Of a stretch of 64,000 bases of DNA, positions 3,601 through 25,370 are shown one piece after another. Below the pieces are notes generated by a model. That model had not been told where the DNA came from and did not search any database. It was given only the letters and a program-made list of their open reading frames with translations. The position numbers and the translations under genes were made by a program. Numbering within the stretch: the stretch's first letter is position 1; every line of letters begins with the position of its first letter. This stretch comes from Candidatus Woesearchaeota archaeon (GTDB taxonomy: Archaea; Nanobdellota; Nanobdellia; Pacearchaeales; GW2011-AR1): positions 1,756-65,755 of the forward strand of contig CAYIGH010000003.1 in the NCBI GenBank assembly GCA_964362915.1, in the 5' to 3' direction.

Positions 3601-4598
3601 TTGCTTGCGTTGCATCTATCCAGTCCGTCCATTATAATTCTCGTATTATTCCTCAACAATATAAGATAACATGGTAAATTCCCGTCTCTCGTTCTTTTCC
3701 TTACAGTCGGAACATAACCAAATCTCTTATTTATATATGTACAAATCCAATTTTTGATGCTTTCTTCGCTTATTGTAATAGAAAAAGGATTATGTGTTCC
3801 TTCAGCAGTAAAAATGCCTAAAAAGTAAGCATCATCTTCATCATACAAACTTTCAGCTACCAAATCAATCTTCTTAGGGTATGCAATAAAATCTCCATTC
3901 TGCAACAGACTAACTTTCTTCCAAACAACTCCATTATCAAAACTTAATAATTGATGCTTTCCAGTTACTTTGAGAATTCTTCCTCTCTTTGTTTTAATAA
4001 CAAAAAGTTTCTTTATTTTCTCTTTGTATAAATGACTCGCGTTTGTAACTTTCAGCTTTCCATCTATCCAAGCTAAAACCTTTACAGTTGTTAAAGGAAC
4101 TATAAATCCTTCTTCAAATTTTTGTTCATTGCTGTTATTTTTATATTTCTCGTAAGTTTTTTCAATAGTCTGAACATGCATCCTGGAATCATTAAAAAAA
4201 CAAACTTCAGTATCCTTGCCTACACATTTGCCAGATCCAAAAGCCCCATAAACCTCTGTCATCGCCTTAGTCTCAACGCCCTTTCCTCCTAGCAATTGAT
4301 TTAAATTCTGCGATCCTGTAGAAATATATCCAACATCTTCCCTTTTCTTAGCAAATTCAATGCCGTCCATAAAACCTAATTTCATCATTCCCCTGGCAGC
4401 TTGAATAGCTTTTCTAGCAACAGCCTCTCCAACACCTGCCATTTCACTTAATGCACTAGGACTCATTACAGCCAATCCCATTAAGTCATAAACACCTGCT
4501 GCCTCCAATTTAGCAGCAATGCCTGGCCCAATTCCAGGAACATCAGTTAATTTTACTTCGTCTTTAGAATCCGCTTCTTTTTCCTCTCCCTTTGCCAT
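603..4598 (-). CDS. radA: DNA repair and recombination protein RadA, interrupted by two inteins
   Basis: N-terminal HhH region (VPGIGPGIAAKLEAAG). Walker A GAFGSGK is followed by Cys. Extein segments 124+160+46 aa sum to 330 aa with the canonical RadA motifs VQLPKEQGGINGKAVIIDTEGTFRPERI and STYRLYLRRGKQGSRVAKLIDSPNLPDNEA. Confidence 0.9.
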   Translation of the reverse strand: MAKGEEKEADSKDEVKLTDVPGIGPGIAAKLEAAGVYDLMGLAVMSPSALSEMAGVGEAVARKAIQAARGMMKLGFMDGIEFAKKREDVGYISTGSQNLNQLLGGKGVETKAMTEVYGAFGSGKCVGKDTEVCFFNDSRMHVQTIEKTYEKYKNNSNEQKFEEGFIVPLTTVKVLAWIDGKLKVTNASHLYKEKIKKLFVIKTKRGRILKVTGKHQLLSFDNGVVWKKVSLLQNGDFIAYPKKIDLVAESLYDEDDAYFLGIFTAEGTHNPFSITISEESIKNWICTYINKRFGYVPTVRKRTRDGNLPCYLILLRNNTRIIMDGLDRCNASNKFIPEGIFLSSEKIISSFLGGYLDGDGEVSDYDVSATTKSPRLATQLSYLLLRLGISSTIKDRVAGIKNEKYKVIRVNGEDRIYLRNIKFKLKNFNCPIRNSSHGYPFKIISLIRHLYKESIGGNRGRLRKLVGKHNNKIVHKQIMDFSHKEVINLSTLKRIKELFSQQKIIFNDCIGRLENNNLSLALLKDIYYKLPFAFNSLAEKIGIRKKSIQNYVFRDIPDEKKDVLKNLIIEELIIRIDKINFVLRLIEDVEHFNWDSVDSTEIIDYNDFVYDFVVPEGHSFIGGNMPTMMHNSQLGFTLVVNVQLPKEQGGINGKAVIIDTEGTFRPERIKQIAEGIGANPEKVLKNILVARAFNSDHQILLIDKIGEMIKEGEPIKIIVIDSLTAHFRAEFAGRGQLADRQQKLNRYLHNLMKMAEQHNLAVFVTNQVMANPGMMFGDPTTPVGGNILGHMCLTGDSLIQLADGGIIEISEMKQDKVLSGNFDKAKFENAESEQVFINPNVDRIYNIKTNCQIRCSSLHRFFSVDNFDILEKEARDLKIGDFVAQVGKIEIGGEERRIPQFKIKKIGKISKGSAGFVKEKLIEKNISRKEICKKIGITPRQFRRVVNQEYSTSWDVLNNLQNYFSGEQVLQLMPAVSNKHRELRIPEFLDWKLGQIFGYFWGDGNFEEGGLRFRDARSEVLEVYRGLFKESFNIDGKIIKMKNKNCYTLYINSKEIRDLFELMFTDILREVGKSRIDVIKGFIKGFFDAEGHINKERAHVSVVQKDERILRYLQLFLLRVGIRSTIKFGIGSQSVNILRIIDRDVQKYLQIGFSASDKQKTLVEKIRQHAESYSYEIMPIKRAELKELLEECGLKYSAIVKPRASSYKWISRKELEKAFRVLMNTEIKDRQIKNKINFIGKLLEGDVVFEKIRDVSINENDGKALYDFSVPKSENYIANGFIVHNSTYRLYLRRGKQGSRVAKLIDSPNLPDNEAQFFVTLAGVRDEAAEE
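744..2225 (-). mobile_element. intein 2 near the RadA C-terminus (494 aa) with LAGLIDADG homing endonuclease
   Basis: Inserted between GGNILGHM and STYRLY. It starts CLTGDSL and ends FIVHN, followed by Ser. Internal blocks are GYFWGDGNFEE and GFFDAEGHIN. Confidence 0.75.
2706..4226 (-). mobile_element. intein 1 in the RadA P-loop (507 aa) with LAGLIDADG homing endonuclease
   Basis: Inserted after GSGK. It starts with Cys and ends ...MMHN, followed by extein Ser (SQLGF...). Internal LAGLIDADG-type blocks are LGIFTAEGTH and GGYLDGDGEV. Junction codons were checked on the nucleotide sequence. Confidence 0.75.
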
Positions 4599-7064: not shown

Positions 7065-7271
7065 ATGAGTAGCTATAAATTAATCATGGGAAAAAAGAGA
7101 GGTTTCAGAGATTTTTTAATTGTTATTCTTGCTGTTATTGGAACGCTATTAATTATTTTTAGTAATAGTTTAACTGGTGATGGCAATGGTAGAACTATCG
7201 TGGTTATTTGGGGCGTTATATTAATTATTGTTGCATTAATTATAAGCTTATCAAGATTTTTGATAAGATAA
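7065..7271 (+). CDS. small membrane protein
   Basis: 68 aa with two hydrophobic helices. Confidence 0.35.
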   Translation: MSSYKLIMGKKRGFRDFLIVILAVIGTLLIIFSNSLTGDGNGRTIVVIWGVILIIVALIISLSRFLIR

Positions 7272-9697: not shown

Positions 9698-10306
9698 ATG
9701 GCACTAACACAAGACCAAATTAAAGAACTTAAATCCCAATTAAAGGAGCAAATCAAGCATCTCCCGCCAGATAAAAAGAAACAGGCAGAAGAACAAGTAG
9801 AATCTCTTTCTCAAGAATCACTAGAACATATGCTCCAGGAACAATCTTCTAAACAAAAAACAATCTTCAGAATGATAGTGGACAAAGAAGTAGAATCAGT
9901 TTCAATAGCTGAAAACTCTGAAGCAATTGCGGTGCTGGAAATTAATCCTATATCAAAAGGCCACACAATAATAATCCCTAAATCCCCTATCAAAGAAGAA
10001 AAATCTATCTCAAAACAAATTCATGAATTATCAGAGCAAATATCAAAAAAACTTATTAGTTCGTTAAATGCAAAATCAACCTCTGTTGTTCCAGAAAAAA
10101 AATTTGGAGAAATCATTTTAAACATCATACCTATTTACAACAAATCTCTGAATCTCGATTCTCCGAGAAAAAAATCATCAGTAGAAGAACTGGAAAAATT
10201 AAAAACCTCAATTAATGTTGAAAAAATAGAGAAAAAGCCAGAGGTGATTAAAAAAGAAGAAAAGAAAGAAGCGGAAGTTTTAAAATTAAAAAGAAAAATA
10301 CCGTAA
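9698..10306 (+). CDS. HIT-like domain protein with degenerate histidine triad
   Basis: The first HIT half-motif is present (AENSEAIAVLEINPISKGHTIIIPK). The HxHxH position reads GEIILNIIPIY with no His. Coiled-coil N-terminus and K/E-rich C-terminus. Confidence 0.45.
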   Translation: MALTQDQIKELKSQLKEQIKHLPPDKKKQAEEQVESLSQESLEHMLQEQSSKQKTIFRMIVDKEVESVSIAENSEAIAVLEINPISKGHTIIIPKSPIKEEKSISKQIHELSEQISKKLISSLNAKSTSVVPEKKFGEIILNIIPIYNKSLNLDSPRKKSSVEELEKLKTSINVEKIEKKPEVIKKEEKKEAEVLKLKRKIP

Positions 10307-11081
10307 TCAACGCAAACAAAAATGCTGGCGTAAAAGGAATCCCTTCTTTAACATAAATCTCTCTATCAAACTTCTTTAATAATTTAATATCCTCCATATT
10401 CAAACCATGAACACTCTTTTTAATAACATTCTTGCCAATTCTAATATCTTTTACTAGCCAGTCTCCTTCACCAAGTTTATCTGCAGAAACTTTAATAATC
10501 ATGCATTTATCCAGGGCCTTAATATAAAAATATAAAAAAGAGACGAAAAATAAGGAAAAGAATAATAAAATACTATTAAAAAAACCAAAAAACATTAACA
10601 AAATAAATGCTCCTAAAGAAATAAATAATATCCAATAATCTCTCCTTATTCTTTTCCTTAATTCAGCAATAAATCTGTCTTTTCTTCTAATAACAATAAA
10701 GATACTATAAATTAAACTATAAACAGACCCTAATAAAAACAAGAAAAAAATAAAAATTATCCCAAAATTAATAAACTCTTTAAAATCGCTATAAGGTAAA
10801 ATAATGCCAAACCCCATCAATAGCTTAGCATCCCCTCCCGCAAAAACCCTTGAATAATAAAATGCATAGGCCAAAACAAAAAATACACCAAATCCTAAAA
10901 CTCCGAAAACAAAAAAGGAGATATTATCAGAAAATAAAGCATAAAAAGCCCGATATGCAAGAGCAAACCCTATCAAAGAAAAATTAAGCCAATTCGGCAC
11001 TTCTCTCTTTCTCATATCACAAACAATAGCAAATGCTGTCCACAAAAAAGCTAATCCAAAAAGAAAATAATACTCCTCCAT
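10248..11081 (-). CDS. pibD: type IV prepilin/preflagellin peptidase (A24 family, PibD/FlaK-like)
   Basis: Both catalytic Asp motifs are present (CDMRKREVPN and FAGGDAKLL), with multiple TM helices. Confidence 0.8.
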   Translation of the reverse strand: MEEYYFLFGLAFLWTAFAIVCDMRKREVPNWLNFSLIGFALAYRAFYALFSDNISFFVFGVLGFGVFFVLAYAFYYSRVFAGGDAKLLMGFGIILPYSDFKEFINFGIIFIFFLFLLGSVYSLIYSIFIVIRRKDRFIAELRKRIRRDYWILFISLGAFILLMFFGFFNSILLFFSLFFVSFLYFYIKALDKCMIIKVSADKLGEGDWLVKDIRIGKNVIKKSVHGLNMEDIKLLKKFDREIYVKEGIPFTPAFLFALITVFFFLILKLPLLSFLLF

Positions 11082-11106
11082 TTAAATAAAAAATCAAATG
11101 CCTTTA

Positions 11107-11235
11107 TTAACCTTCTCTATTAAATTTTACTAATACTCCTTCTCTATGCTTTCCGCCCTTCTTATAAACCCTGAATCTTCTCTTGGCTTTCTTATCTCCC
11201 TTAGTTTTCCTAAAACTTGGTATTGTATAATCCAT
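11107..11235 (-). CDS. very small basic protein (42 aa)
   Basis: MDYTIPSFRKTKGDKKAKRRFRVYKKGGKHREGVLVKFNREG. Lies between the major pilin gene and the peptidase gene. Below the track cutoff. Confidence 0.25.
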   Translation of the reverse strand: MDYTIPSFRKTKGDKKAKRRFRVYKKGGKHREGVLVKFNREG

Positions 11236-11275
11236 GATTAAATTAAAAAAATAAACTTTAAATTCTTATCTAAAA

Positions 11276-11614
11276 CTAAGGTGTGCAAGTGCTACACCCA
11301 TACTTTGTTGAAGCTGTCTTTAAATCATTATCATCCTTGGTAACTGAGCTATAGCCACAATTAACCTTTTCAACTTTGCCTTCTATCTTTACATTTTTAC
11401 ACTCGCAAAAGCTTGTCTTTGAATCAGAAGCTACAGCCACTTTACAAGAAGCAACCATTGCACTCAAGTCACTCCCAGAAGTTATGCCTATCTTGCTGAA
11501 TAAATTCTCCCATCCTATAGAAAAGCCTAATACTAACAAAACCAAAACTATAATTCCCAATACAATTAATATTAAAGTCCCAATAGATAACTCCTGTCCT
11601 CTTTTATTATTCAT
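11276..11614 (-). CDS. type IV pilin-like protein (likely major pilin), class III signal peptide
   Basis: MNNKRGQELSIGTLILIVLGIIVLVLL matches the class-III signal (KRGQ followed by a hydrophobic stretch). Short (112 aa). Has its own TATA-like element upstream. Confidence 0.7.
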   Translation of the reverse strand: MNNKRGQELSIGTLILIVLGIIVLVLLVLGFSIGWENLFSKIGITSGSDLSAMVASCKVAVASDSKTSFCECKNVKIEGKVEKVNCGYSSVTKDDNDLKTASTKYGCSTCTP

Positions 11615-11637
11615 ATATAAAATAAAACAAATTTACT

Positions 11638-11644
11638 TATAAAC
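11638..11644 (-). promoter_or_regulatory. TATA-like box (TTTATAA) about 25-30 nt upstream of the pilin ATG
   Basis: The minus-strand sequence is ...aaaggTTTATAAgtaaatttgttttattttatatATG. The spacing fits an archaeal leaderless promoter. Confidence 0.3.
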
Positions 11645-11676
11645 CTTTCTAAATCAATATTTTTCAATCCTATATT

Positions 11677-11716
11677 CGAGAGAACAAAAAGTTTGGTCAA
11701 TTATTTTGTTCTCTCG
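11677..11716. terminator. 13-bp perfect inverted repeat hairpin spanning the stop codon of the upstream pilin gene
   Basis: cgagagaacaaaa (11677-11689) pairs with ttttgttctctcg (11704-11716). The right arm encodes the last codons (AREQNN) of ORF 11697..12197. Confidence 0.35.
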
Positions 11717-12197
11717 CTATAATAACATCCCCGCTGTAATCAAATTCTATTCTAAAGTTAACATTCCTCTTGATATAATCTGCTCCGGCAGAAGCCTCTA
11801 AATTCAAATTCATCATTTCAAAAGTATATTTATCTGCATCTCTGGAAAAACTAAACTCTCTCCTCAAGATCTTTCCGAAATAATTCTCCATGCCCTTGAT
11901 TTCAGAATTTCTCTTGCTTGCCAACTCTCTGAACTTTTCTCTCAATCCCTCATCACTTCTTATTGCCCCTGCTTCTGAAATAATCTCTCTTGCAATAATT
12001 CCTGTTTCAGCAATAATATAATCCTCATAAAAAGCAATATCGCTCAATATTCTGGCTCTTCCCTCTGATCCCTTCTCAAAATTATCGTTAAAACTGACAA
12101 AGCTAAACAACGTCGCCCCATATAAAACCAAAGCTGCTACGATTAACAATAAAGTGGGTAAATCTCCTCTCCTGTTCATTGCCTCTCCTCCAAACAT
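11697..12197 (-). CDS. pilin-like protein (class III signal peptide)
   Basis: N-terminus MNRRGDLPTLLLIVAALVLYG. The internal Met at 12179 forms an ATGA overlap with the upstream stop. Confidence 0.55.
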   Translation of the reverse strand: MFGGEAMNRRGDLPTLLLIVAALVLYGATLFSFVSFNDNFEKGSEGRARILSDIAFYEDYIIAETGIIAREIISEAGAIRSDEGLREKFRELASKRNSEIKGMENYFGKILRREFSFSRDADKYTFEMMNLNLEASAGADYIKRNVNFRIEFDYSGDVIIAREQNN

Positions 12198-12745
12198 TTA
12201 CCGTAATAATACTGTATATATACTATTTTCCCTGTCTCCTTCAAATTCGAAAAAGAAATTTCTCTTAATAGCCCTTCTTTTTCATATTCTCCTAATGCTA
12301 ATGGCTTGTCTCCTGTACTTCTCTTAAACACATTTCCATCTTTAAATCCAATAAAAAAATCATTCAAAGAAGCTCCCCCAAGCAATCCAGCAGGCCCTTT
12401 CTCTAATCCCTGCGCAATTGCAAGACAATGGCTTTCTTTAGCGTCCCTATCAACAATCTCTTCTAAACCATCTTCCACTGAAATAATATCAATCTCTTCA
12501 TTCCAATATTTAACTAAAGCATCAAAAACAAGCATTTTATTATTCTTATTATTAATCTCAATATTAATATCCCTAACTAAAACACTATCAACCCACACTC
12601 CCTCAATTAAAGCCGGCACAATAGGCTTCTTAATAACAACTGCAAAAGCAGTCAAAATCAAAAATATTCCAGTTATAAAAACTATCAGTAAAAAAACAGG
12701 TAAAGTTGATAAGATTTTTCCTATTATCAGGCCTTTCTTATTCAT
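12176..12745 (-). CDS. pilin-like protein (class III signal peptide-like N-terminus)
   Basis: MNKKGLIIGKILSTLPVFLLIVFITG. Confidence 0.5.
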   Translation of the reverse strand: MNKKGLIIGKILSTLPVFLLIVFITGIFLILTAFAVVIKKPIVPALIEGVWVDSVLVRDINIEINNKNNKMLVFDALVKYWNEEIDIISVEDGLEEIVDRDAKESHCLAIAQGLEKGPAGLLGGASLNDFFIGFKDGNVFKRSTGDKPLALGEYEKEGLLREISFSNLKETGKIVYIQYYYGKCLEERQ

Positions 12746-13296
12746 TCTATGCTCCTCCTAGAAACCTGGTTGCTTCCTGTAATAATTATAAATTTTTTCC
12801 TGTCCTTATTAATCTCTCCAAAAGAACATTTAGGAAAAGCATCATCTTCAGCGCTTTTAATTTTGCAAATATTAAAATTACTTCCTAAAACAAGAAAGGG
12901 CTCATCAGATGTCGTACAATCATCTCCAAAACCATCACAAATCTTTACAATATTATTCTTCTCTAAAATCTCTTTATTTAAACTGCATGTCTCAAAAAAT
13001 TTCTCGCTCTTGAAAAATTCATCATTTATATCATTTTCCAAGATACATTGCCTGACTTTATAATTCAATAAATCTGCCTCAACCTGTCTATAATCATATC
13101 CCTTGCTATAAAAAATAGAAATCCCTAAAGCAATGCTTCCCCCAATAATCAAAATCAAAAATAGAAAATATATAATACTCAATTGTTCCCCAACAGCCCC
13201 CCTCTTATTCAAAATATTTCTTCTCATCTTAAACAGCTCCTCTCCTCTTATCAGCAAGATTAAAGCATAGCATATTAACAATTTCTCCTTTATCAT
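12742..13296 (-). CDS. pilin-like protein (class III signal peptide)
   Basis: Likely true start at MRRNILNKRGAVGEQLSIIYFLFLILIIG (Met codon at 13225-13227, directly after the upstream stop). Confidence 0.55.
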   Translation of the reverse strand: MIKEKLLICYALILLIRGEELFKMRRNILNKRGAVGEQLSIIYFLFLILIIGGSIALGISIFYSKGYDYRQVEADLLNYKVRQCILENDINDEFFKSEKFFETCSLNKEILEKNNIVKICDGFGDDCTTSDEPFLVLGSNFNICKIKSAEDDAFPKCSFGEINKDRKKFIIITGSNQVSRRSIE

Positions 13297-13681
13297 TTAC
13301 GCCTCCAGCTAATTTCAAATCCAAATTAACAATATCAACATCATTAAAATAATTAAAACATCTCTTAATGCCTCTGCTTAATTTTACACAAATCTCATTT
13401 TTTGCATTGTCAACTCCAAAAATCTCGCTGAAACTCACAACTTCATTTTCTTTAGCTATTTCACTCGCTTTATGCACATCTAAACATATATTATCCCCTG
13501 ATTTAGAAAAATCTATTACTTTAACAATCTCTTTAGTATAGTAATCTGCCCATAAATCTGCTCCCTCCCTCTGTCCATTAACCACAAATAACATACCTAC
13601 AATAAATACAATTAATAAAATCAAATAAACAAGATAACTCTTCAGTAAATCCTCAACCGCCCCTCTTTTATTTATGTTCAT
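13229..13681 (-). CDS. pilin-like protein (class III signal peptide)
   Basis: MNINKRGAVEDLLKSYLVYLILLIVFIVG. The N-terminus is paralogous to the downstream gene. Confidence 0.6.
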   Translation of the reverse strand: MNINKRGAVEDLLKSYLVYLILLIVFIVGMLFVVNGQREGADLWADYYTKEIVKVIDFSKSGDNICLDVHKASEIAKENEVVSFSEIFGVDNAKNEICVKLSRGIKRCFNYFNDVDIVNLDLKLAGGVNDKGEIVNMLCFNLADKRRGAV

Positions 13682-14361
13682 TTTTCACAAGCCGCTTCAA
13701 AACCAAGGTTGCTAAAATCAATATCCTTTATTCTAAAAATTGCAAGTTTTCTATCTTCCTTATAAACAAGAAACTTAAAAATATTATTTCCTGAAAAATA
13801 AGCGCACTCTGACAATAAATTAAAATTATAGCTCTTGTCAGACCATTGTCCGATTCCATAACTATCAAAATTATTTAAGTCTTTTATAACTTCTTCTTCT
13901 TTAAATTTCATCACGCCATCTTTTGCCTTATTAAAATCATATAATTTAACTTCCTCAAATTCCAACTCCTTGCAAATCCCTCCATCCTGACAAACTTTTC
14001 TGGCATCTCTTTTATTTCCCTTGCAGATGCAAATACAGCTATTAAAAAAACATTTATCCGTCCTGCCTGCCTCATTCTTACTCCATCCAACTAAAAACCA
14101 TTTTTCTAATCCCTCAATATTAAAACCCCCTACTTCTCTGTCATTAATCCTCTCTGTTCTTTTAACTATATTGTCAACAAGTTCTTCAGCACTTTCTCTC
14201 TCCTGATTCACTGCAATATCCCAAACTTTCCAAACAGCAAAAATTAATATTCCTGCTCCAATAACAAATAAAATAATTCCTAATGTTTCTTTCAATAAAT
14301 CTCCCTCTTCCGCTTTTCTATTCAAATAGCTCATGCCCTTCCCAAAATTCCCCCTTTGCAA
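13678..14361 (-). CDS. pilin-like protein
   Basis: Likely start at MSYLNRKAEEGDLLKETLGIILFVIGAGILIF (ATGA overlap at 14331-14334). Cys-rich extracellular domain. Confidence 0.5.
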   Translation of the reverse strand: MQRGNFGKGMSYLNRKAEEGDLLKETLGIILFVIGAGILIFAVWKVWDIAVNQERESAEELVDNIVKRTERINDREVGGFNIEGLEKWFLVGWSKNEAGRTDKCFFNSCICICKGNKRDARKVCQDGGICKELEFEEVKLYDFNKAKDGVMKFKEEEVIKDLNNFDSYGIGQWSDKSYNFNLLSECAYFSGNNIFKFLVYKEDRKLAIFRIKDIDFSNLGFEAACEK

Positions 14362-15401
14362 AGTTCATTAATCTTAGAACTATCGCTATAATCAACAGCA
14401 GTTACAACAGAGCATCCTTTCCTGTTTTTCTCACTGCTTGTAAACTCTCCGCAATAAGCAGCAGATATTGTCTGGTCATTGCTTGCTTTATAATAGGCAT
14501 AGGCAGCAATTCCTGAAGCAGCAGCAAGTTCTGCAATTTGAGCAACAAAAAATACTTTCCCTGCAACTGTAGAAAAGCCGCTTATAATCTTTCCAACTGG
14601 GCTTAGCGCACGATCTCCCACTAAAATAAATCCTCCGCCAACTAAAGCTACATCAATTGCCTTTTCAAAAGGATCTTCTTTTGTATTCATCTGTGCAAAT
14701 AAAACAGCAATTTCATTAGTTGCCTTTCCTTCATTCTTAGTCAGCTCATCCTTAAAAGCCCCATAAGATCTAATAGAATTATCTGTAAATAAGCTCAAAT
14801 AACTTTCTTTAGATTGAGGAGCAGTTTCTTCAGACAAGTATCTATTAACATCAACCTTGCTTATAACTTCCTCAAAATACTGATTTCTTTCCCCTGCTTT
14901 TTTATCTTTAAATTCAAAATCCTTATCTAAGGCGATCCTTGAGCATATAACACATGAAGCTGCCGCATCATCAGAAAAAATACTCTGTTGATTTCCCAAT
15001 AAATCTAATTTTCCTTCTCCCATCATTTTCCAGCAGGAAAGCATAGAATCTGCAACTGTCTTCTCAATTGTTCTTGCAGCTTCTTCAGAATTCTTTCCAA
15101 CTCTAATTCTATCATCATCTCCTAAAAACTGTTCCTCGCATTCTCCAAACAATTTATCAGTTATACAAACTTTTCTTGTCGTACATTTTAAAGGCACGTT
15201 AACAACATTCTTAGCAATATCAGGTGTAGTCGCCCTTGTCAAAACACTTAATCTGCAGGTTTCATCTAGGCCAAACCCCTTTATATCAACCCCTAATATA
15301 AAATATAAAAGAATAGCAAAACTAATTATTGCTACTATAATCGCAAATAAAAAAGATGCTACAAAACTCAACCCTCTTTTTTCCATATAAATATCAATCA
15401 A
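14331..15401 (-). CDS. large pilin-like / minor pilin or tip protein (class III signal peptide)
   Basis: MEKRGLSFVASFLFAIIVAIISFAILLYFIL, followed by a 320-aa extracellular domain. Confidence 0.55.
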   Translation of the reverse strand: MIDIYMEKRGLSFVASFLFAIIVAIISFAILLYFILGVDIKGFGLDETCRLSVLTRATTPDIAKNVVNVPLKCTTRKVCITDKLFGECEEQFLGDDDRIRVGKNSEEAARTIEKTVADSMLSCWKMMGEGKLDLLGNQQSIFSDDAAASCVICSRIALDKDFEFKDKKAGERNQYFEEVISKVDVNRYLSEETAPQSKESYLSLFTDNSIRSYGAFKDELTKNEGKATNEIAVLFAQMNTKEDPFEKAIDVALVGGGFILVGDRALSPVGKIISGFSTVAGKVFFVAQIAELAAASGIAAYAYYKASNDQTISAAYCGEFTSSEKNRKGCSVVTAVDYSDSSKINELCKGGILGRA

Positions 15402-15540
15402 ACTATATTTATAACAGTTGTGCCGCTATTAAACAAATAAATTCCTAATAAAAAAAATAACTATTACTAAAGCCAAAATAAAAAAAATAATCCATAAAAG
15501 CCAATTCAACAAACTGCTTCCAATACCTTTTCTAAACATT

Positions 15541-16527
15541 TTAGCACAAATCTCCCTCCCCAACCTCCTTATTCAATCTAACAATTAAATATCTATTATC
15601 AAAAAACTCAGCACAAACATATAAAGGCTGCAACGGAATAGCCATACTAATAGCAACTGGTTTCTTCAAAACACTTTCTTTCCATTTCAGCGCCTCTTCT
15701 CTAAAAAATAACTCATATATCCCATACTCCTCTGCCCTAAAACTAGTTCCATCTTCTTTATACAACTCGCCATTATATCCAACATAAAAAATTTCCCCAT
15801 GATAAGGCAAATCAATAAAACTAACTCCATAAGAATATTGCAAATTATCCCCTCCCCTTAAAATCAGAAGTCCTGCTGTTCTGCTCAATTCTCTAAGTTT
15901 TTTAATATCCTCGCAATTCCTCCCTCCTATGTCTCTATCTCCAACTTTACAAAGACTTGCTTCAATAGAATAACTATTTCTCCAATTAAACCTATTAAAT
16001 GACCATTCCCATCCAAAAGCAGGACTATCTGCTGTAATGTATCTAAAATATATTTCTGGCTCGTTAGGCCTCTTAATTAAAATAACGGAAAGCTCTCCAT
16101 TCTCTATCATTTTCTTAATCTCTTCTTTCTGACGCAATTTAATTTCAATACCATAATTGCGCCCCTCATTCCAAACTAGTTTAATCTCCCCATCATAAAT
16201 AACTAAAGAAATTTCATCTTTAACATAATCATCAAAACTAGCTTTGATATTATCATAATTTAGATTTCCTTCTCTTAATTTAATATCTTTCCCTGAAAAA
16301 TCCAAAAAATTATTTCCATCATAATATTCTACCTTTCCGTTATCAAGATCATACCTCAAAATATTAAATCCTTTTGTCGTCTCATTATCCTGTTTAAAAC
16401 TAAATTTAAAAAGCTCTATCTTTCCAGCAAGCCAGGGAAAAACACTTGTGAAAACAATAACTAGTAAAACTGCAACTATTACAATAACTATAATCGCACT
16501 AACACTTATATTGCCTTTTCTTTCCAT
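15541..16527 (-). CDS. large pilin-like protein (class III signal peptide)
   Basis: MERKGNISVSAIIVIVIVAVLLVIVF. Confidence 0.55.
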   Translation of the reverse strand: MERKGNISVSAIIVIVIVAVLLVIVFTSVFPWLAGKIELFKFSFKQDNETTKGFNILRYDLDNGKVEYYDGNNFLDFSGKDIKLREGNLNYDNIKASFDDYVKDEISLVIYDGEIKLVWNEGRNYGIEIKLRQKEEIKKMIENGELSVILIKRPNEPEIYFRYITADSPAFGWEWSFNRFNWRNSYSIEASLCKVGDRDIGGRNCEDIKKLRELSRTAGLLILRGGDNLQYSYGVSFIDLPYHGEIFYVGYNGELYKEDGTSFRAEEYGIYELFFREEALKWKESVLKKPVAISMAIPLQPLYVCAEFFDNRYLIVRLNKEVGEGDLC

Positions 16528-16689
16528 CTATCCTCCGAATCTAAAAAGCTCCTTTAAGTATCTCAAAGCATTTCCTATTGTATCTCCGGCAATTCCGCTA
16601 AAAACCAAATACAAAACCAATAATGCTAATAAAACAATAATAGGCACTAAAACAATCCATGGCAATTCTATCCCTCTTTTATTGAACAT
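16528..16689 (-). CDS. small pilin-like protein (53 aa, class III signal peptide)
   Basis: MFNKRGIELPWIVLVPIIVLLALLVLYLVF. Its stop directly abuts the next start. Not in track (<60 aa). Confidence 0.5.
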   Translation of the reverse strand: MFNKRGIELPWIVLVPIIVLLALLVLYLVFSGIAGDTIGNALRYLKELFRFGG

Positions 16690-16817
16690 ATTTCTAGTAA
16701 AACCCTTATATTATTAAACCTTATTCTAATGGTATCGCTCATCATAAACATAAAAACCGCACAATTTATAACATTCCTATTTCTTAATATTACAGCTAAA
16801 TAGCCAAAAAGAGGAAG

Positions 16818-18989
16818 ATGCCAACAACAAAACAAATCCTGGAAAAGTATTCCAGAAAATTGGAATCAGAAATCTATGATGCAGAAAAACCGTATCCAGA
16901 ACAATTTTCAGAAGAATACGCAAAATTCAGGCAGGAAATGATTCCAGAACTCTCAAAATATGAACGCTGGGCTAAATCTTTAGGAAATATAATCAAGATA
17001 AGAATTGCTGAAAAAGACAGGCAAAAAATACAAAACTATCTTGATAATGCTCGTTTAGGTGTCACTGCCTCAGAAGCAATAACCCTGGCATTAATCTCAA
17101 TGCTGGGTATTTTTTTCCTGGCAATATTGACAACAGTCTCTATCTATCTGATCTTTCCCCCGTCCAATCTTAATAATTTAGTCCTCCTATCTTTCTTAGG
17201 CATAATCACAAGTTTCTTTGTTTTTTACTATGTCTATTCCATGCCAAAACGTCTCTCTAATATCTATCGCTTGCAATCCTCATCTCAAATGGTGCCTGCA
17301 ATCCTCTATATTGTAGTTTATATGAAGCACACCTCAAATTTAGAAAGAGCGATTCATTTTGCCTCAGAACATTTAGAAGGCACTCTGGCTTTAGACTTCA
17401 AAAAGATTTTCTATGATGTTGAAATAGGAAAATCCTCTACAATAAAACAATCCCTTGATGTATACTTAGAAACATGGCGCGATTATGCCCCAGAATTTAT
17501 AGAATCCTTTCATTTGATAGAATCTTCTCTTTTTGAGCCATCAGAATCAAGAAGAATACAAATTTTAGAAAAAAGCCTTCAAATAATCTTAGATGGAGTT
17601 TATGAAAAAATGCTGAAATATTCAAGAGAAATTCGCTCACCATTAACAAACGTCTATATGCTTGGAATAATCCTGCCAACACTCGGGCTTGCCCTTCTTC
17701 CCCTGGCATCAACTCTCTTAGGAGGAATATTAAAATGGTATCATATAGCAGTTCTCTTCAATATAATAATTCCATTTCTGGTATTCTACCTTGTTTCAGA
17801 AGTTCTACTAAAACGTCCAGGTGGTTATGGCGAATCTGAGATTCTTGAATTAAACCCAAACTATCAAGAATTCAAATCAAAAAAACCGTGGTTCAAAGCA
17901 GCCCTAATTTCTCTGCCTCTATTTATTATTGGAATCGCCCCCTTCCTCCTCCAAATAAAAGAAATCAGTGCATTATTAGGCATAAAATCAGATTATACAT
18001 TCGCTGAATTAGGTATAACATTCCTAGCCAATACAAAAATCTTTGATTTTAAAACAATAGAAAACACAATAACAGGTCCATTTGGCCCTGTAGCACTAAT
18101 CCTGAGCTTATTTATACCTTTATCAATAGGTTTATTCTTCTCAATATCCTATAAACAAAAAACAAGCTCTATAATTCAAGCAAGAGAAGATACAAAAATC
18201 CTGGAAGAAGAATTCACAAATTCAATATTCCAATTAGGCAATCGCCTAGGAGATGGTGTTCCAGCTGAAATTGCATTTGCGCATGTTGCAGAATTAACTA
18301 AAACAGAAAAAACCCACGACTTTTTTGCATTAGTAAATCAAAATATCCAACAGGCAGGTATGTCCTTAGAATCTGCTATTTTCAACAAAAAAAGAGGAGC
18401 AATAATTTTCTTCCCCTCTCCTTTAATAGCAACTTCAATGAAGATTCTTGTTGAGTCTGTAAAAAAAGGCCTTCAAGTGGCAGCACGTTCTTTAATGGCA
18501 ATTTCAGAATATGTAAAAAATATCAACAAAATAAATCAGCGCCTTAAGGATCTCCTCGCAGAAATAATAACTGACATGAAATCAAATATGACGTTTTTGG
18601 CTCCATTATTAGCAGGCATAGTAGTCGGGCTGGCTGCGATGATAACCTCAATTCTAAACAAATTGCAGGCTTTCCAAGCAGAAATAAGTTCAGGAAGCGG
18701 CGCAGCAGGCGTCACAAATCTAGCTAATATAGCAAACCTGTTCCAAGTAGATAAAATGATTCCTCCATATTTCATACAGGCCTCTATCGGAATTTATATA
18801 ATACAGATAGTTTTCATCCTGACATCTGCTTTAATAACTGTTGAAGCAGGCCGCGATATCCTAAAAGAAAAATACGAGCTCTCCCATAATTTGTCAAAAA
18901 GCCTAACTCTTTATCTAATCACTGCCCTATTATCAATTCTGGCTTTGACTCTCCTTGCCTCAATAGCACTAGGTAACTTATCTGGCTAA
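16818..18989 (+). CDS. polytopic membrane protein, candidate pilus assembly platform (TadC/FlaJ/PilC-like)
   Basis: 723 aa with alternating cytoplasmic helical domains and TM bundles. Divergent from the pilin operon and in the same neighbourhood as the FlaI-like ATPase. Assignment is by context and topology only. Confidence 0.45.
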   Translation: MPTTKQILEKYSRKLESEIYDAEKPYPEQFSEEYAKFRQEMIPELSKYERWAKSLGNIIKIRIAEKDRQKIQNYLDNARLGVTASEAITLALISMLGIFFLAILTTVSIYLIFPPSNLNNLVLLSFLGIITSFFVFYYVYSMPKRLSNIYRLQSSSQMVPAILYIVVYMKHTSNLERAIHFASEHLEGTLALDFKKIFYDVEIGKSSTIKQSLDVYLETWRDYAPEFIESFHLIESSLFEPSESRRIQILEKSLQIILDGVYEKMLKYSREIRSPLTNVYMLGIILPTLGLALLPLASTLLGGILKWYHIAVLFNIIIPFLVFYLVSEVLLKRPGGYGESEILELNPNYQEFKSKKPWFKAALISLPLFIIGIAPFLLQIKEISALLGIKSDYTFAELGITFLANTKIFDFKTIENTITGPFGPVALILSLFIPLSIGLFFSISYKQKTSSIIQAREDTKILEEEFTNSIFQLGNRLGDGVPAEIAFAHVAELTKTEKTHDFFALVNQNIQQAGMSLESAIFNKKRGAIIFFPSPLIATSMKILVESVKKGLQVAARSLMAISEYVKNINKINQRLKDLLAEIITDMKSNMTFLAPLLAGIVVGLAAMITSILNKLQAFQAEISSGSGAAGVTNLANIANLFQVDKMIPPYFIQASIGIYIIQIVFILTSALITVEAGRDILKEKYELSHNLSKSLTLYLITALLSILALTLLASIALGNLSG

Positions 18990-20161: not shown

Positions 20162-21349
20162 ATGGACTTGCTTAAATTTAATGCTAAAGCTGGAAGATTA
20201 GTAAGGAGAAGTGCTACATTTGGAAGAGAGTTTATGGAGTTTGATTATTTCTTTCCAAACGAATTGCCTGATATGAGAGACATTTGTAATGATCTCTCTC
20301 TAATTGAAATATCTAATGAGGCAAATAGGGCAATAGGAGAATTACACGGGCTAATTAATAATATAGGTATGATAGGAACGTTAAAATTATTTGTTGAACC
20401 ATATTTAAGAAAAGAAGCAGTAGATAGTTCTGAAATTGAGGGAACAAAAGTTTCCTTAACAGATGTTTTTTTAAGTGAGGCTGGAAGTAAAAAACCAGAA
20501 ATTCTTAATCCAAATATTAAAGAAGTAGTTAATTTTGTTAGGGCGATAGATTATGCATTGATGGAATTAAAGGAAGGTAAGAAAATCAGTAAGGAATTGA
20601 TAAATAAAATACATCAGATTCTTCTTGAAGGAACGAGAGGAAAAGATAAAAAAATTGGAGATTATAGAAAACAACAAAATTGGATTGAAGGAAATGATGT
20701 ATTGGATGCAAGATTTGTCCCCCCGTCAGAAACGGAAGTAGAAAAACTAATGCAATATTTATTTGATTATATAAATAAAGAAGATGGATATATGAGATTA
20801 ATTAAAGCTGGGTTAATTCATTATTATTTTGAAACAATACATCCCTATGAAGATGGAAACGGGAGGGTTGGAAGAACATTAATTTTATTATATCTTCTTC
20901 AAACAAAAATTTTAAATGAGCCTATATTACATTTAAGCCCATATTTTAAACGATACAAAGAAAACTATTATGGCCTTCTAATGAATGTTAGAGAAACAGG
21001 CGATTATAACAGATGGATTAAATTCTTTTTGACTGGAGTAATCGAAGTAGCAATTAATACATCAAATAAAGTAAGAAAATTAGTGAAGTTATATAACTCT
21101 TATCGGAATTGTTTAATAAATGTTAAAGCTACATCTATTTCATTTAAACTATTAGATAAATTCTTTGAGCGACCTTACTATTTTATAACTCTCCTTGAAG
21201 AAGAATTAAAAGAGAATTATCCTAAAACAAAAAGAGGTTTAAATTATCTAATAAAATGTAATATTATAAAATTGTATACAAAATATAAAAGAAATAAGAT
21301 TTATCTCGCTCAAGAAGTTTTAAAAATCCTCGAAGAAGATTTGATTTAA
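20162..21349 (+). CDS. fic: Fic/DOC family protein (class II-like, N-terminal inhibitory motif)
   Basis: Fic motif HPYEDGNGRVGR. An upstream SxxxEG-type inhibitory motif (DSSEIEGTKV). Sits in an extremely AT-rich stretch. Confidence 0.8.
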   Translation: MDLLKFNAKAGRLVRRSATFGREFMEFDYFFPNELPDMRDICNDLSLIEISNEANRAIGELHGLINNIGMIGTLKLFVEPYLRKEAVDSSEIEGTKVSLTDVFLSEAGSKKPEILNPNIKEVVNFVRAIDYALMELKEGKKISKELINKIHQILLEGTRGKDKKIGDYRKQQNWIEGNDVLDARFVPPSETEVEKLMQYLFDYINKEDGYMRLIKAGLIHYYFETIHPYEDGNGRVGRTLILLYLLQTKILNEPILHLSPYFKRYKENYYGLLMNVRETGDYNRWIKFFLTGVIEVAINTSNKVRKLVKLYNSYRNCLINVKATSISFKLLDKFFERPYYFITLLEEELKENYPKTKRGLNYLIKCNIIKLYTKYKRNKIYLAQEVLKILEEDLI

Positions 21350-21433
21350 TTTTTTTAATTAGTTTACCAGCCGTTAAATTAACAATGCCATAAAACAGCA
21401 AAACTTAAATAATATACAACAAAATTATTTTCT

Positions 21434-21820
21434 ATGGAAGAAATAAAAGTCAGGCAAACCCTAAAGATAGAAGAACTGATAGATAAACGGCACTATTACA
21501 CAAGATTTTTAGCTGGTCTTGATACGAATCAGAAAGAACTAAATCTAGAAGTAACTGAAATAAAAACCAATCCAAGAGAATACAATTGGAGATTCACGGA
21601 TGCAAAAGGACAAGAAGTGAAACTCTTGCCATATGCAAGAAGTGCATTTAAGGAAAAAGCACATACACATTATCTAGCACATATAATAGAAGGAGAAAAA
21701 ATATTGCAAAAAGCAAAACAAAAACCCCTAATAACTCTAGAAAAATGGAAAAAAATTGAAGTTGAACAAACAACCTTCATTAACGAAGCATATATTAAAG
21801 AAATGCCATTCTCAAAGTGA
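21434..21820 (+). CDS. hypothetical protein
   Basis: 128 aa with no recognisable motif. Downstream of fic in the same AT-rich segment. Confidence 0.35.
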   Translation: MEEIKVRQTLKIEELIDKRHYYTRFLAGLDTNQKELNLEVTEIKTNPREYNWRFTDAKGQEVKLLPYARSAFKEKAHTHYLAHIIEGEKILQKAKQKPLITLEKWKKIEVEQTTFINEAYIKEMPFSK

Positions 21821-21852: not shown

Positions 21853-24123
21853 TTACCACTTCTCTGCTTCCTTATAAAGCCATTCCTTCCATCTAGGAAA
21901 AACAAACTCTTCTAAAGGCAATCCATGCTCTTCTCTAGCCTCGTCGCTGATTCTATGAAAAACCTCATTAGATAAAGTATTAAATTCCGCTTCTAATAAT
22001 TCCGGCTTTCCAAGCTTCTCAGCTGCCTCAACAATTTCCTGCTTTACTTTGCCTCTCAAAATTATATTATCATAAACAGCATCCCAGTTCCCCGCCCATC
22101 CTTTAACATTTCCCGCAATATTCTTAATAATTTCAGATTCTCCATTGATTAATTCAGGCGTAGGTTCTAATTCATCCTTTTCAACATTATATCTTAATAA
22201 ATCAACAAATCCTTTCTCTGATAAAGGATCCTTATTCCAATGCTTTCTCACTTCTGTAACACTAACTATTCTTCTCGCAGAATGCAATCCGTCAGCTGTT
22301 CTGATCGGATTAGCTACAACAATAATATCTGTTGCCTTAAAGCTTGTAGGAGGAACATCTAAATCATTAACAACCCTGTCAAAAACCCCATAAGGAGAAT
22401 CACCGTGAATAGTCCCGGCAACTACATTAGCCAATGCCCCTATCCTCATTGCCTCATATAATGCCTTTGCCTCTTTGCTTCTAACTTCTCCAACAATTAA
22501 AGCAGAATCTCCTAGTCTCAAACTAGTTCTAATCCCTTCTGAAGCCTCAACCTCAGTCGTCCCCTTAACCAACGCCGATCTAACCTTCATTCGCATTATA
22601 TCATAACCTATGCGTCTCATAGAATCAGCAGGAATCTCTAAAGTATCCTCAATCAAAATAACCCTATATTTAGACATTATCTCAAGCATTAAACTTCCTA
22701 AAAAACTAGTTTTTCCTGAACTTCTTGTTCCAGCAATAAGCATTGTCCTTCCTCCTGCAATCAGAAAGCTAAGCAATCCTGCGCCAAAAGAATTTATCAT
22801 TTTATTCTTAATAAATAAAGGCAAAGTCCATGGTTCATCCCTATGCCTTCTAAAAGCATAAGCCAGGCCAGAAGGAGATAACGGCCTAGTAACCGCAGCA
22901 ACTCTCGCTCTGGCATTCTTAAAAATAAGGTCTGTATCCAAAACAGGATTTGCCTCATCTAATGGTCTGCCTGATTGCAGTCTTAATTTAGCAGCCCACG
23001 AATCAGCATCTTCATAACTAGGAAGAATGTTAGTCACGCATTCGTCATAATCAGAATGCCTAACAAAAACATTATTCAATCCTATGGGGGCGTTTAATAC
23101 AATATCTTGAAGCTTATTGTCCATAAGTAAAATCTCAATTAATCCAAAACCAATAGTATTTCTGACTAAAATCCTGGCAAGTTTATTCAATTCTCTATAA
23201 CTAAGCCCTATTCCTTTACTTCTAGCCAATTCCTGCAGCAAATCCTTGGAAACATTAAAAAAAACTTCTCTTGTTCTTTCAGGGTCCGTAAATTCCTCTG
23301 CCTTTGGCCTATGTTCAGTCAAAACATTTCTGGCTAAATTAACAAGCATATGGTGCTCTTCATTTAATTCATATTCAGGCGGCATAGTATGATAAAAATA
23401 TTTGGAATCATTCTCTCTTTTCATAATAGTTACGCTGATATTTTCATCCTCTCCAATTTTGTACTGGTCAATGAGTTCAGCATCTTTAGGAAGTTCAGCC
23501 ATTAATCTTGTAAAACTAAAATTAGGCAGAACATCTGGCCTGAAAATATCCGCATAAATATTTCTATTGCCAAAGCCATAGTCATCTACTAAACTTACAA
23601 CATTTTGTATAAGTTTAGTGCCTTCCAACAATCCCTGAAATCTCTCAAGCAACCGTATATAATTGACTAAATTCCCTCTCTTAACTGCCTCTCCGCTCTT
23701 TAAACTCTCTCTCAATCCTCTTATCCTATTTTTTAATTCAATATAGCATCCTACAGGATCTTGTCTTAATAACCCTAATAAATAACTCAAATCTCCATAT
23801 ATCTCAGAAGCATTTCCAAAAAATCTTAATTTAGCAGGGGACAATAGCTCTTCCTGTTTAACTAAAAAATTATAGAGCCTTGCAATCTCTGTCAATAAAC
23901 TGACTTGTTGAAAAGCATAATTATAATTCCTCTGCTGTACAAAAACTATTCTAGTAACATTAGGGTTATTAATCAAAGCGTCAATAGTTCTAGCCATAAC
24001 ATCTGCACTTTCAGCAATACTGGGAACATAATTAGCCAGGAGATAATTAACATATAAAATATCTTCTCCTTCATGCCTCTCAATTTCAACAGCGTAAAGT
24101 GGCGCACCTTCTTTGAAAATCAT
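21853..24123 (-). CDS. type II/IV secretion-family ATPase (FlaI/PilB/TadA-like) with extended N-terminal domain
   Basis: Walker A LIAGTRSSGKTSFL, Asp box VILIEDTLEI, His box GEVRSKEA...AGTIHGDS. 756 aa. Confidence 0.8.
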   Translation of the reverse strand: MIFKEGAPLYAVEIERHEGEDILYVNYLLANYVPSIAESADVMARTIDALINNPNVTRIVFVQQRNYNYAFQQVSLLTEIARLYNFLVKQEELLSPAKLRFFGNASEIYGDLSYLLGLLRQDPVGCYIELKNRIRGLRESLKSGEAVKRGNLVNYIRLLERFQGLLEGTKLIQNVVSLVDDYGFGNRNIYADIFRPDVLPNFSFTRLMAELPKDAELIDQYKIGEDENISVTIMKRENDSKYFYHTMPPEYELNEEHHMLVNLARNVLTEHRPKAEEFTDPERTREVFFNVSKDLLQELARSKGIGLSYRELNKLARILVRNTIGFGLIEILLMDNKLQDIVLNAPIGLNNVFVRHSDYDECVTNILPSYEDADSWAAKLRLQSGRPLDEANPVLDTDLIFKNARARVAAVTRPLSPSGLAYAFRRHRDEPWTLPLFIKNKMINSFGAGLLSFLIAGGRTMLIAGTRSSGKTSFLGSLMLEIMSKYRVILIEDTLEIPADSMRRIGYDIMRMKVRSALVKGTTEVEASEGIRTSLRLGDSALIVGEVRSKEAKALYEAMRIGALANVVAGTIHGDSPYGVFDRVVNDLDVPPTSFKATDIIVVANPIRTADGLHSARRIVSVTEVRKHWNKDPLSEKGFVDLLRYNVEKDELEPTPELINGESEIIKNIAGNVKGWAGNWDAVYDNIILRGKVKQEIVEAAEKLGKPELLEAEFNTLSNEVFHRISDEAREEHGLPLEEFVFPRWKEWLYKEAEKW

Positions 24124-24211: not shown

Positions 24212-24517
24212 ATGGGCCCTCCGACAGAATATGCAGAACAGCAATATTCTTCTGACATGAACCTAAAAATAAGAGATATTGAAGATAAACTTAATTTGTT
24301 AAGAAATAGAGTCATGCTAATAGGCCAGTCTCATGTGGATGAAAGAGAGAAAAACTTTTCGCAAATTCAAGAAATGAAAAAACAGATTCTTCAAATGAAG
24401 GAGGAAAATATAAGAATCAGCGCGCTTTTACAAAGATTAACAGAACAACTCAACAACACTATAAGAAAAGAAGAACTTACAATACTTCAAAGACAATTTG
24501 ATTTATTCAGAAAATAA
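24212..24517 (+). CDS. coiled-coil protein
   Basis: 101 aa, heptad-rich. Confidence 0.4.
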   Translation: MGPPTEYAEQQYSSDMNLKIRDIEDKLNLLRNRVMLIGQSHVDEREKNFSQIQEMKKQILQMKEENIRISALLQRLTEQLNNTIRKEELTILQRQFDLFRK

Positions 24518-24962
24518 AATGGGAATAATAGAAGAAATAGGAAAAATGAGGCAGTTTGGAAAATCAGATCAGGAGATTGTAAAAACATTGCGGCAAAGAG
24601 GAATATCAGACAAAGAAATCTCAAATCTCCTATCTCAGTCACAAATTAAAGAAGCAGTAACATCTCCGTCACAAACATTATCTCCTATGCAAGATCCTCC
24701 TGATACATCTAATTATCAAACCCCTTACTTCGGTATGTCTCCAACAATAGAAGAGCTTGGCTCTATGCAGCCATCTCTTCTAAATCAGCAGCAAGCCTAT
24801 CAAGAGCCAATACCATCCACCCCTGCGCCGCTCCAAGAAGCACAGTATCCTGAAGAACAACTCTATCCACAAGAATCATATCCTGAAACTTACCCGCAGC
24901 AATACCTGAACAAACTTATGACTATAACTATCAATATCCGCAATACACACAATCATCAATAA
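24498..24962 (+). CDS. Q/P/Y-rich low-complexity protein (5' part of a frameshifted gene?)
   Basis: The YPQESYPETYPQQY low-complexity run continues in another frame (PEQTYDYNYQYPQYTQ) into ORF 24998..25348. Confidence 0.4.
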   Translation: MIYSENKMGIIEEIGKMRQFGKSDQEIVKTLRQRGISDKEISNLLSQSQIKEAVTSPSQTLSPMQDPPDTSNYQTPYFGMSPTIEELGSMQPSLLNQQQAYQEPIPSTPAPLQEAQYPEEQLYPQESYPETYPQQYLNKLMTITINIRNTHNHQ

Positions 24963-24997
24963 GTTCAGATACAATATCAGAAATAGCAGAGCAAGTC

Positions 24998-25348: not shown

Positions 25349-25370
25349 TAATAAAAATATTTAAATAAAA

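Follow-up and report, generated by a model that had tools for sequence, protein, structure and literature searches.

The stretch of DNA analyzed here (64,000 nucleotides, referred to as the window) carries ten consecutive minus-strand genes (16689..11276) whose products begin with M-x(1–7)-[KR]-[GA], followed by a hydrophobic stretch of 20–30 residues. An A24 prepilin peptidase of 277 residues (11081..10248, minus strand) is the last gene of this array. A 128 bp divergent intergenic region (16690..16817) separates the first gene of the array from the gene of a polytopic, FlaJ/TadC-like platform protein of 723 residues (16818..18989, plus strand). An assembly ATPase of the TadA/CpaF/FlaI/GspE type (756 residues, 21853..24123, minus strand) is located approximately 3 kb from the locus as delimited in a preliminary description of this DNA, in which it had been missed. 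With a peptidase, a platform, an ATPase and ten class III-like proteins present, the window contains all four defining components of the archaeal type IV filament machine, as these are given in a recent preprint (10.64898/2026.04.22.720090). The locus very probably is the gene set for a type IV filament (pilus) of a Pacearchaeota-like groundwater DPANN archaeon. For comparison, 83 related loci were fetched, and the 32 of them in which both peptidase and platform could be placed were used for counts of architecture.

From first to last in the direction of transcription, the array (slashes mark predicted cleavage sites) consists of p53 (16689..16528, N-terminus MFNKRG/IELPW), p328 (16527..15541, MERKG/NISV), mini36 (15539..15429, MFRKG/IGSS), p351 (15386..14331, MEKRG/LSFV), p218 (14334..13678, MSYLNRKA/EEGD), p150 (13681..13229, MNINKRG/AVED), p161 (13227..12742, MRRNILNKRG/AVGE), p189 (12745..12176, MNKKG/LIIG), p160 (12179..11697, MNRRG/DLPT) and p112 (11614..11276, MNNKRG/QELS, with predicted cleavage KRG/QELSIGTL). 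The tandem of about ten class III-signal genes reported in the preliminary description was confirmed as ten co-directional open reading frames (ORFs), all with K/R at position −2 and G/A at −1. The K/R-R/K-G leader ascribed to them holds for the nine with Gly at −1, but p218 has Ala at this position. The peptidase, which was said to precede the pilin genes, adjoins the array, but as its last rather than its first transcribed gene. Sizes of 53, 328, 150, 189 and 112 residues stand as given before, whereas those of 356, 227, 184 and 166 residues result from upstream alternative starts and are revised to 351, 218, 161 and 160 residues. The shorter forms are likely, since they begin at the ATG next to the motif and are supported by the N-termini of orthologues; the motif-adjacent starts also create the stop/start overlaps between genes. 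The mini-ORF previously listed with 31 residues encodes a precursor of 36 residues, 31 being the predicted mature length.

Seven junctions in the array are overlapping or nearly so, with four ATGA overlaps (14331–14334, 13678–13681, 12742–12745 and 12176–12179), one direct abutment (16528/16527) and two 1-nucleotide spacers (at 15540 and 13228). The first and last of these overlaps and the abutment had been recognized in the preliminary description, while the supposed abutments at 13227/13229 and 15540/15541 are the two spacers. This packing is lineage-wide: with the junctions sorted into three classes of genes, gaps of no more than 2 nucleotides make up 26 of 32, 25 of 33 and 96 of 154, and gene 2 overlaps gene 1 by 4 nucleotides in 19 of the 32 loci.

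The peptidase matches the Pfam family Peptidase_A24 (PF01478, E = 5.8e-12) and, below cutoff, the NCBIfam model FlaK_Arch (9e-10). In an alignment, its D22 and GGD84 fall on both catalytic Asp motifs of FlaK from M. maripaludis (PDB code 3S0X), which bears out the earlier identification of an A24 peptidase with both motifs. An orthologue holds the same position in 51 of the 83 related loci.

The platform protein of the window has no match in Pfam (E ≤ 1), in NCBIfam or, by sequence, in the PDB, where a single-sequence search and a 32-sequence profile search were both empty. The T2SSF model (PF00482), against which the preliminary description had proposed that 16818..18989 be searched, failed to match the window protein itself but was matched by 15 of 32 orthologues (65–81% identical), with a best E value of 2e-6. 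Four orthologues were examined. Three of them, passing the T2SSF gathering score, are 73–75% identical and match at residues 466–582, while the fourth falls just under this score (24.9 versus 25.2 bits) and has its best match at residues 158–289; these two positions point to the two-domain layout of FlaJ, TadC and PilC. An AlphaFold2 (AF2) model of the platform, with a predicted local distance difference test (pLDDT) score of 76, was matched by Foldseek to the cytoplasmic domains of EpsF and OutF with a probability of 0.99, a target template modeling (TM) score of 0.69–0.74 and a root mean square deviation of approximately 2.9 Å, and the top-ranked match overall was the PilC chain of a type IVa pilus machine model. 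On these sequence and model comparisons, the 723-residue protein is a diverged FlaJ/TadC platform, as the preliminary description had suspected. That description had made its reading depend on class III cleavage sites and on T2SS-F homology of the platform candidate; cleavage determinants are found in all ten ORFs, and the platform homology is present. The platform family is large, with more than 4390 relatives, and relatives occur in at least 589 GTDB species genomes.

The ATPase matches Pfam T2SSE (E = 2.1e-12) and has intact sequence motifs, including a Walker A motif (GTRSSGKT, residues 465–472), LIVGEVR (residues 542–548) and a GTIHG His box (residues 570–574), behind a long N-terminal extension of approximately 290 residues. 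Its scores with the NCBIfam models TadA (1.6e-37) and FlaI (2.3e-33) are both far below the equivalog cutoffs (115.7 versus 550 bits for FlaI), and its nearest solved relatives are GspE of A. fulgidus (7.6e-26), CpaF (1.7e-22) and FlaI. The ATPase gene is found within 10 kb of the platform gene in 73 of the 83 loci. The FlaI score, and a peptidase that is closest to FlaK, might recall an archaellum, but the peptidase score is likewise far below its equivalog cutoff, and no cluster protein scanned matches archaellin (PF01917). Moreover, the scanned ORFs of the window and of the related loci L001–L003 yielded no FlaH/KaiC-like, FlaF/FlaG or FlaC/D/E proteins, and archaea with an archaellum need all seven of its components (PMC4858521). 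By its gene content the locus is not an archaellum, and we regard the chance that it encodes one as practically negligible.

A loose motif scan on both strands resulted in 10 matches within the 5.4 kb of the cluster, compared with 11 in the 58.6 kb that make up the rest of the window. Most of these 11 lie inside membrane proteins or belong to ordinary signal peptides. The motif density in the 32 related loci is 1.46/kb inside the cluster and 0.25/kb outside it, approximately a 6-fold enrichment, and the clustering is not due to chance. The architecture recurs in all 32 testable Pacearchaeota-like genomes, with a median of 10 class III-like ORFs in the interval from peptidase to platform and a constant order of sizes: approximately 50, 167–537, approximately 36, approximately 340 and approximately 200 residues for genes 1–5, and approximately 140–150, 150–170, 160–210 and 150 residues, with a terminal protein of 100–200 residues, for genes 6–10.

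The key determinants of archaeal signal peptidase III are K/R at −2 and G/A at −1 (PMC3387779, PMC4371748). Across 313 ORFs of the 32 loci, the leader has the consensus M-N-K-[KR]-[GA] and a length of five residues in 153, with Asn at −4 in 47% and Lys at −3 in 64%, neither of which was demanded by the filter; the +1 residue is mostly Gln, Glu or Asp. In the three closest relatives, the platform is 76–77% and the ATPase 79% identical, compared with 69–73% for p112, 56–61% for p150, 49–65% for p160, 46–53% for p161, 46–66% for p53, 32–55% for p351, 31–51% for p189, 32–38% for p218 and 25–38% for p328. This faster change of the pilin-like genes than of platform and ATPase matches what is seen in known pilus systems. 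The number of cysteines is even in all ten mature parts (0, 4, 0, 10, 8, 4, 6, 2, 0 and 6), which fits disulfide-bonded extracellular domains, and N-glycosylation sequons are almost absent from all ten. Recent tandem duplication as the origin of the array was considered and rejected, similarity among the ten proteins being confined to their N-termini.

Several observations weigh against a filament gene set. Membrane anchors with their N-terminus inside generally bear the same signature, a positive charge ahead of a membrane helix, and cleavage is only predicted. None of the curated pilin and archaellin models (Pfam PF07790, PF04021 and PF01917, and the NCBIfam equivalents) matches any of the ten proteins at E ≤ 1, the sole pilin-related entry in the scans being Flp1_like for p328 (E = 0.11). 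An acidic residue is present within +1 to +6 in 230 of the 313 ORFs. A strict rule of the FlaFind type for positions +1 to +4 would probably reject most of these N-termini, which are polar or acidic at +1 to +6. Residues ~250–305 of p351 contain a conserved, Gly/Ala-rich (34%) hydrophobic insert of approximately 50 residues, modeled with a pLDDT below 50 in a putatively extracellular head whose model is otherwise good. In 33 of 50 family members, the insert is on the borderline of being hydrophobic enough for a membrane segment; such a second hydrophobic segment is odd for a pilin that is to be extracted from the membrane. On the side of the machinery, the platform protein lacks the Pfam match noted above, and its hhalign test for internal duplication used a shallow alignment (effective number of sequences, Neff, 1.4). 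Linkage of the ATPase alone is weak evidence, because the synteny in this lineage reaches unrelated genes (RadA, EF1B and HIT). Finally, the choice of the major pilin remains one between p112 and p53.

These points could be carried further, to the view that most of the ten are uncleaved single-pass membrane proteins and that the substrates of the peptidase and platform are encoded elsewhere, which would also agree with the failure of Makarova et al. to find cognate pilins in nanoarchaeal genomes (PMC4858521). We consider this very improbable. Both the length and the sequence of the leader (MNK[KR][GA]) are tightly constrained across ten non-paralogous families and 32 genomes, the peptidase and platform always flank the array, and the motif enrichment inside the cluster and the even cysteine counts in all ten proteins also oppose it.

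The p112 protein has a hydrophobic helix of 30 residues and a small head rich in cysteine, and it is the best conserved of the pilin-like proteins in the three closest relatives. Within its family, the N-terminal 35 residues are nearly invariant, the +1 Gln is invariant and four cysteines are kept, while the C-terminus is variable. A B recognition element (BRE)/TATA-like element (aGAAAGG-TTTATAAG, 11636..11651, minus strand) is located 22–37 nucleotides upstream of the p112 ATG, with the TATA box itself (TTTATAAG) at 22–29 nucleotides, a position that would imply a leaderless or short-leader transcript. Of the 16 loci inspected, nearly all have a AAAgnTTTATAAA element at this distance before the p112 orthologue, and a strict TTTATAW pattern precedes the last pilin gene in 17 of 32 loci. 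The conserved BRE/TATA element and the highest conservation favor p112 as the major pilin, and from its sequence it is most likely the best candidate for the main filament subunit, ranked ahead of p53. The preliminary description had derived a separate and higher level of expression for p112 from a TATA-like element of its own and from a hairpin over the preceding stop codon. The element is present and conserved in the lineage, and together with the conservation of the protein it speaks for p112, but it is a shared trait and the hairpin is not conserved.

The upstream regions of p53, p351, p112, the peptidase gene and a very basic 42-residue ORF (MDYTIPSFRKTKGDKKAKRRFRVYKKGGKHREGVLVKFNREG; 11235..11107, minus strand) located between p112 and the peptidase gene are all AT-rich, with a TATA-like box approximately 20–30 nucleotides before the ATG and no Shine-Dalgarno sequence. 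Since the other genes are also TATA-like in this respect, p112 represents one of several transcription starts. Internal genes of the array, including p160 and p189, are preceded by GGAGG-like sites. This arrangement suggests several leaderless or short-leader transcription units, which would comprise p53-p328-mini36, p351 to p160, and p112, the 42-residue ORF and the peptidase gene each alone. The intergenic region between p53 and the platform gene contains AT-rich TATA-like motifs on both strands and is presumed, from its sequence, to be the site of bidirectional promoters. The 42-residue ORF is kept in 29 related loci with approximately 60% identity, is called as a gene of 43–48 residues in L001 and L002, and has no Pfam or PDB match.

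The hairpin (11677..11716, minus strand) has a 13-bp stem, with the p160 stop codon UGA (11697–11699) in the loop and a T5 run in the 3′ arm. It is real by its free energy (−18.3 kcal/mol, z = −5.07, with 0 of 200 shuffles as stable), but it was absent or different in the related loci in which it was looked for. It is therefore treated as a local, terminator-like feature outside the system, and as a possible terminator of the upstream operon. A scan of the window for bacterial sigma-70 promoters and terminators performed no better than with shuffled sequences, these models not being applicable to an archaeon.

The p53 protein, of 53 residues (47 when mature), is helix-only. A gene of 47–54 residues with a conserved C-terminal KNLxRFG[KR] motif is the first of the array in 31 of the 32 loci, and p53 is by analogy a candidate for an alternative major pilin of the Flp/EpdE type. 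The same machine might then build an Epd- or Tad-like filament, with p53 as the major subunit and p112 as a minor or alternative pilin. The position of p53 as the first gene with a TATA-like element upstream is consistent with this, as are the small size of Epd major pilins, which have no globular domain (PMC4858521), and the presence of TadA and CpaF among the NCBIfam models and solved proteins closest to the ATPase. We nevertheless find this doubtful: p53 is less conserved than p112 in the closest relatives (46–66% compared with 69–73%), it has no equivalent of the Gln that is invariant at +1 in Epd pilins, the single platform gene of this locus contrasts with the two of Epd-type systems, and p112 shows the classic pattern of a major pilin. 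Bacterial Flp pilins carry a G/XXXXEY motif. This motif, too, is missing from p53. The mini36 protein is essentially one hydrophobic helix. An ORF of 35–47 residues with a conserved W-I-x-F core is found at its position in approximately 30 of the 32 loci and is called as a gene in L003. Judged by this sequence conservation, the mini36 group and the group of first genes of approximately 50 residues are real families.

The p328 position is occupied by proteins of 167–537 residues across the loci and is the least conserved of the pilin-like genes. Such variability fits an adhesin specific for a host or a surface, and p328 is the best adhesin candidate. The preliminary description had considered both large proteins as tip adhesins. 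While this suits the hypervariable p328, p351 is widely conserved and has no adhesin-like fold match. It is the most widely detectable pilin-like protein, being detected in 65 of 83 loci, and by this breadth it looks like a core component rather than an adhesin. None of its 182 database relatives is named or has a Pfam domain, and the relatives of p112 in the large protein database are likewise all unnamed. In the AF2 model of p351 (pLDDT 77, predicted TM score 0.75), the N-terminal helix resembles that of pilins, and the head has an alpha/beta structure in which ten cysteines are conserved. A Foldseek search with this model gave a best probability of 0.15 in the PDB and nothing in BFVD; the idea of an adhesin domain in p351, for which these two databases offered no fold match, was dropped.

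The mid-size proteins p218, p150, p161, p189 and p160 are presumed to be minor pilins. The p218 protein contains eight cysteines, and its orthologues carry a canonical KKG (for example, MKSKKG/EMT in L001). Orthologues were found in 48 loci for p150, in 49 for p161, which has six cysteines in its mature part, and in 22 for p160, while the p189 position is occupied by a gene of 180–210 residues in most loci.

Many non-paralogous class III proteins with distinct heads also resemble the minor-pilin sets of type II secretion systems (T2SS) or Com systems, and the locus could encode a short pseudopilus, a bindosome-like assembly or a DNA-uptake (Com-like) pilus, with the class III proteins displayed or secreted. 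Archaeal type IV filament machines do also serve the surface display of binding proteins, according to the 2026 preprint (10.64898/2026.04.22.720090), and in ultrasmall genomes the genes for pilin-like proteins and for competence have been connected with the uptake of extracellular DNA (PMC9938205). Such a function is improbable here. No match to a substrate-binding, enzyme or DNA-binding domain was found among the ten proteins, and none of the ORFs scanned was recognized as ComEC- or DprA-like. Furthermore, p112 looks like a filament subunit, and pili have been imaged on ultrasmall cells of this kind. A different possibility, to which we give only a slim chance, is a separate filament subsystem specific to Pacearchaeota, with lineage-specific parts that serve more than adhesion. 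Two processed micro-proteins (47 and 31 residues) would be integral subunits of the filament or the machine, and p351, with its unmatched Cys-rich fold and its Gly/Ala-rich insert, would sit at the tip and insert in the host membrane. If this were true, the subsystem would be the organelle behind the pili seen reaching from ultrasmall cells into their hosts.

For the type IV filament that we favor, assembly would proceed as follows. The ten pre-proteins would insert in the membrane with their short positive N-terminus (typically M-N-K-[KR]-[GA]) on the cytoplasmic side, where the A24 aspartyl peptidase would cut after the Gly or Ala. A hexameric ATPase of the TadA/FlaI type would drive the FlaJ/TadC-like platform, which would extract the mature subunits from the membrane and stack their hydrophobic N-terminal helices into a filament. 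In this scheme p112 would most likely be the main filament subunit, the products of the coupled genes p351 to p160 may be minor pilins of low abundance, with a role in priming assembly or in capping, and the hypervariable p328 would be the best candidate for the adhesin. The helix-only p53 and mini36 could be Flp/EpdE-like pilins or small membrane parts of the machine.

The locus shares with other archaeal type IV filament systems clustered, fast-evolving and often unannotated pilins (PMC4858521; 10.64898/2026.04.22.720090). It differs from them in that no curated pilin model was matched and in the length of the ATPase with its N-terminal extension. The locus resembles the Epd system (system 1) of M. 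maripaludis and Thermococcales in several respects. Both have a large cluster with several pilins (11 genes in M. maripaludis), five or more of them minor, and a peptidase of their own encoded alongside. Both also include small pilins made of a helix only (here p53) and Gln at +1 (here p112), and their complexity is comparable to that of bacterial type IV pili and T2SS. However, system 1 has two platform genes and the large peptidase EppA, whereas a single platform gene is present here, as in L001–L003, together with a FlaK-like peptidase of 277 residues. Substrates of EppA-type peptidases have a conserved +1 Gln (and +5 Glu) (PMC4371748); +1 Gln is confined to one protein out of ten here and reaches 22% in the lineage as a whole, and the acidic residue is usually at +1 to +4, not at +5. 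Neither a DUF2341/PilY-like adhesin nor a FleN/MinD ATPase was found.

Bacterial Tad/Flp systems resemble the locus in the ATPase, which is closest to TadA and CpaF among NCBIfam and solved bacterial proteins, in a tiny helix-only candidate pilin, in larger pseudopilin-like proteins and in a dedicated A24 peptidase. Unlike these systems, the archaeal cell has a single membrane and so no secretin, RcpA or TadD, and the platform is a single fused protein. The Sulfolobus Aap and Ups pili and the minimal Aap-like systems reported in some DPANN members are likewise adhesive pili made from an ATPase, a platform and PibD-processed pilins. They have one or two pilins, whereas ten ordered class III proteins, including two micro-proteins, are found here. 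In the literature searched, DPANN archaea are said only generally to carry type IV pilus genes, and no description of the ten-gene architecture was found there, the 29,521 loci of the 2026 preprint (10.64898/2026.04.22.720090) lying outside that check.

A protein identical to the 723-residue platform is encoded on contigs from the 0.1 and 0.2 µm filter fractions of Hainich groundwater well H51, and platform relatives bear the names Pacearchaeota, Woesearchaeota or Nanoarchaeota. By these sequence relationships, the source organism is a Pacearchaeota-like DPANN archaeon. The window is AT-rich (approximately 30–41% GC) and is marked as archaeal by a RadA that contains inteins; no tRNAs or Rfam families were found in it.

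The region that separates the platform gene from the ATPase gene encodes a Fic/DOC protein and an ORF of 128 residues (20162..21820, plus strand), with a dip in GC to 0.279. Different genes occupy this interval in L001 and L002, and it looks like a variable insertion spot. Near the ATPase (24212..27048), three small proteins (101, 154 and 116 residues) and three adjacent polytopic membrane proteins of approximately 175 residues are encoded. The 101- and 116-residue proteins have weak coiled-coil-type Pfam matches only, and the latter has a His-rich tail. These genes are syntenic with the ATPase in 49–61 of the 83 loci, but the synteny also spans unrelated housekeeping genes, so that a role in the pilus is unproven. 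A 61-residue ORF elsewhere in the window (7086..7271, plus strand), which begins with MGKKRG and a hydrophobic stretch, was rejected as a pilin on account of its two hydrophobic segments and the absence of a homologue from the fetched loci; it is probably a small two-helix membrane protein. The window also contains a RadA/Rad51 recombinase gene (603..4598, minus strand, 1331 residues) that is interrupted by inteins, with matches to two Intein_splicing stretches and three LAGLIDADG homing-endonuclease stretches. Dockerin-type-I calcium-binding repeats are present in large secreted proteins at 36004..37323 (plus strand), 40433..43321 (minus strand) and 46471..48723 (minus strand), and similar DxDxDG repeats were judged by eye to be present in a protein of 815 residues (28888..31335, plus strand). 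The dockerin-type proteins contain no other recognizable domains and may be surface or host-interaction proteins.

The system is a lineage-specific member of the well-known archaeal type IV filament systems, of the kind to be expected, with pilin families that are unannotated. It leaves the understanding of how type IV filaments work unchanged. An attached life on other cells is assumed for DPANN archaea, and imaging has shown pili on host-attached ultrasmall cells from groundwater (PMC7906910); the filament described here may serve such attachment. The proteins that form the imaged pili have not been named in genomes, and the pilin-like proteins of this locus and their relatives, which all bear the annotation hypothetical, escape the standard pilin models. 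What is gained is a lineage-wide parts list of ten ordered families with the leader consensus given above. In it, p112 ranks first and p53 second as candidate filament subunits, and p328 is the candidate adhesin; all of these can be searched for in groundwater metaproteomes and metatranscriptomes, and the ten families could be used to improve pilin predictors for DPANN archaea.

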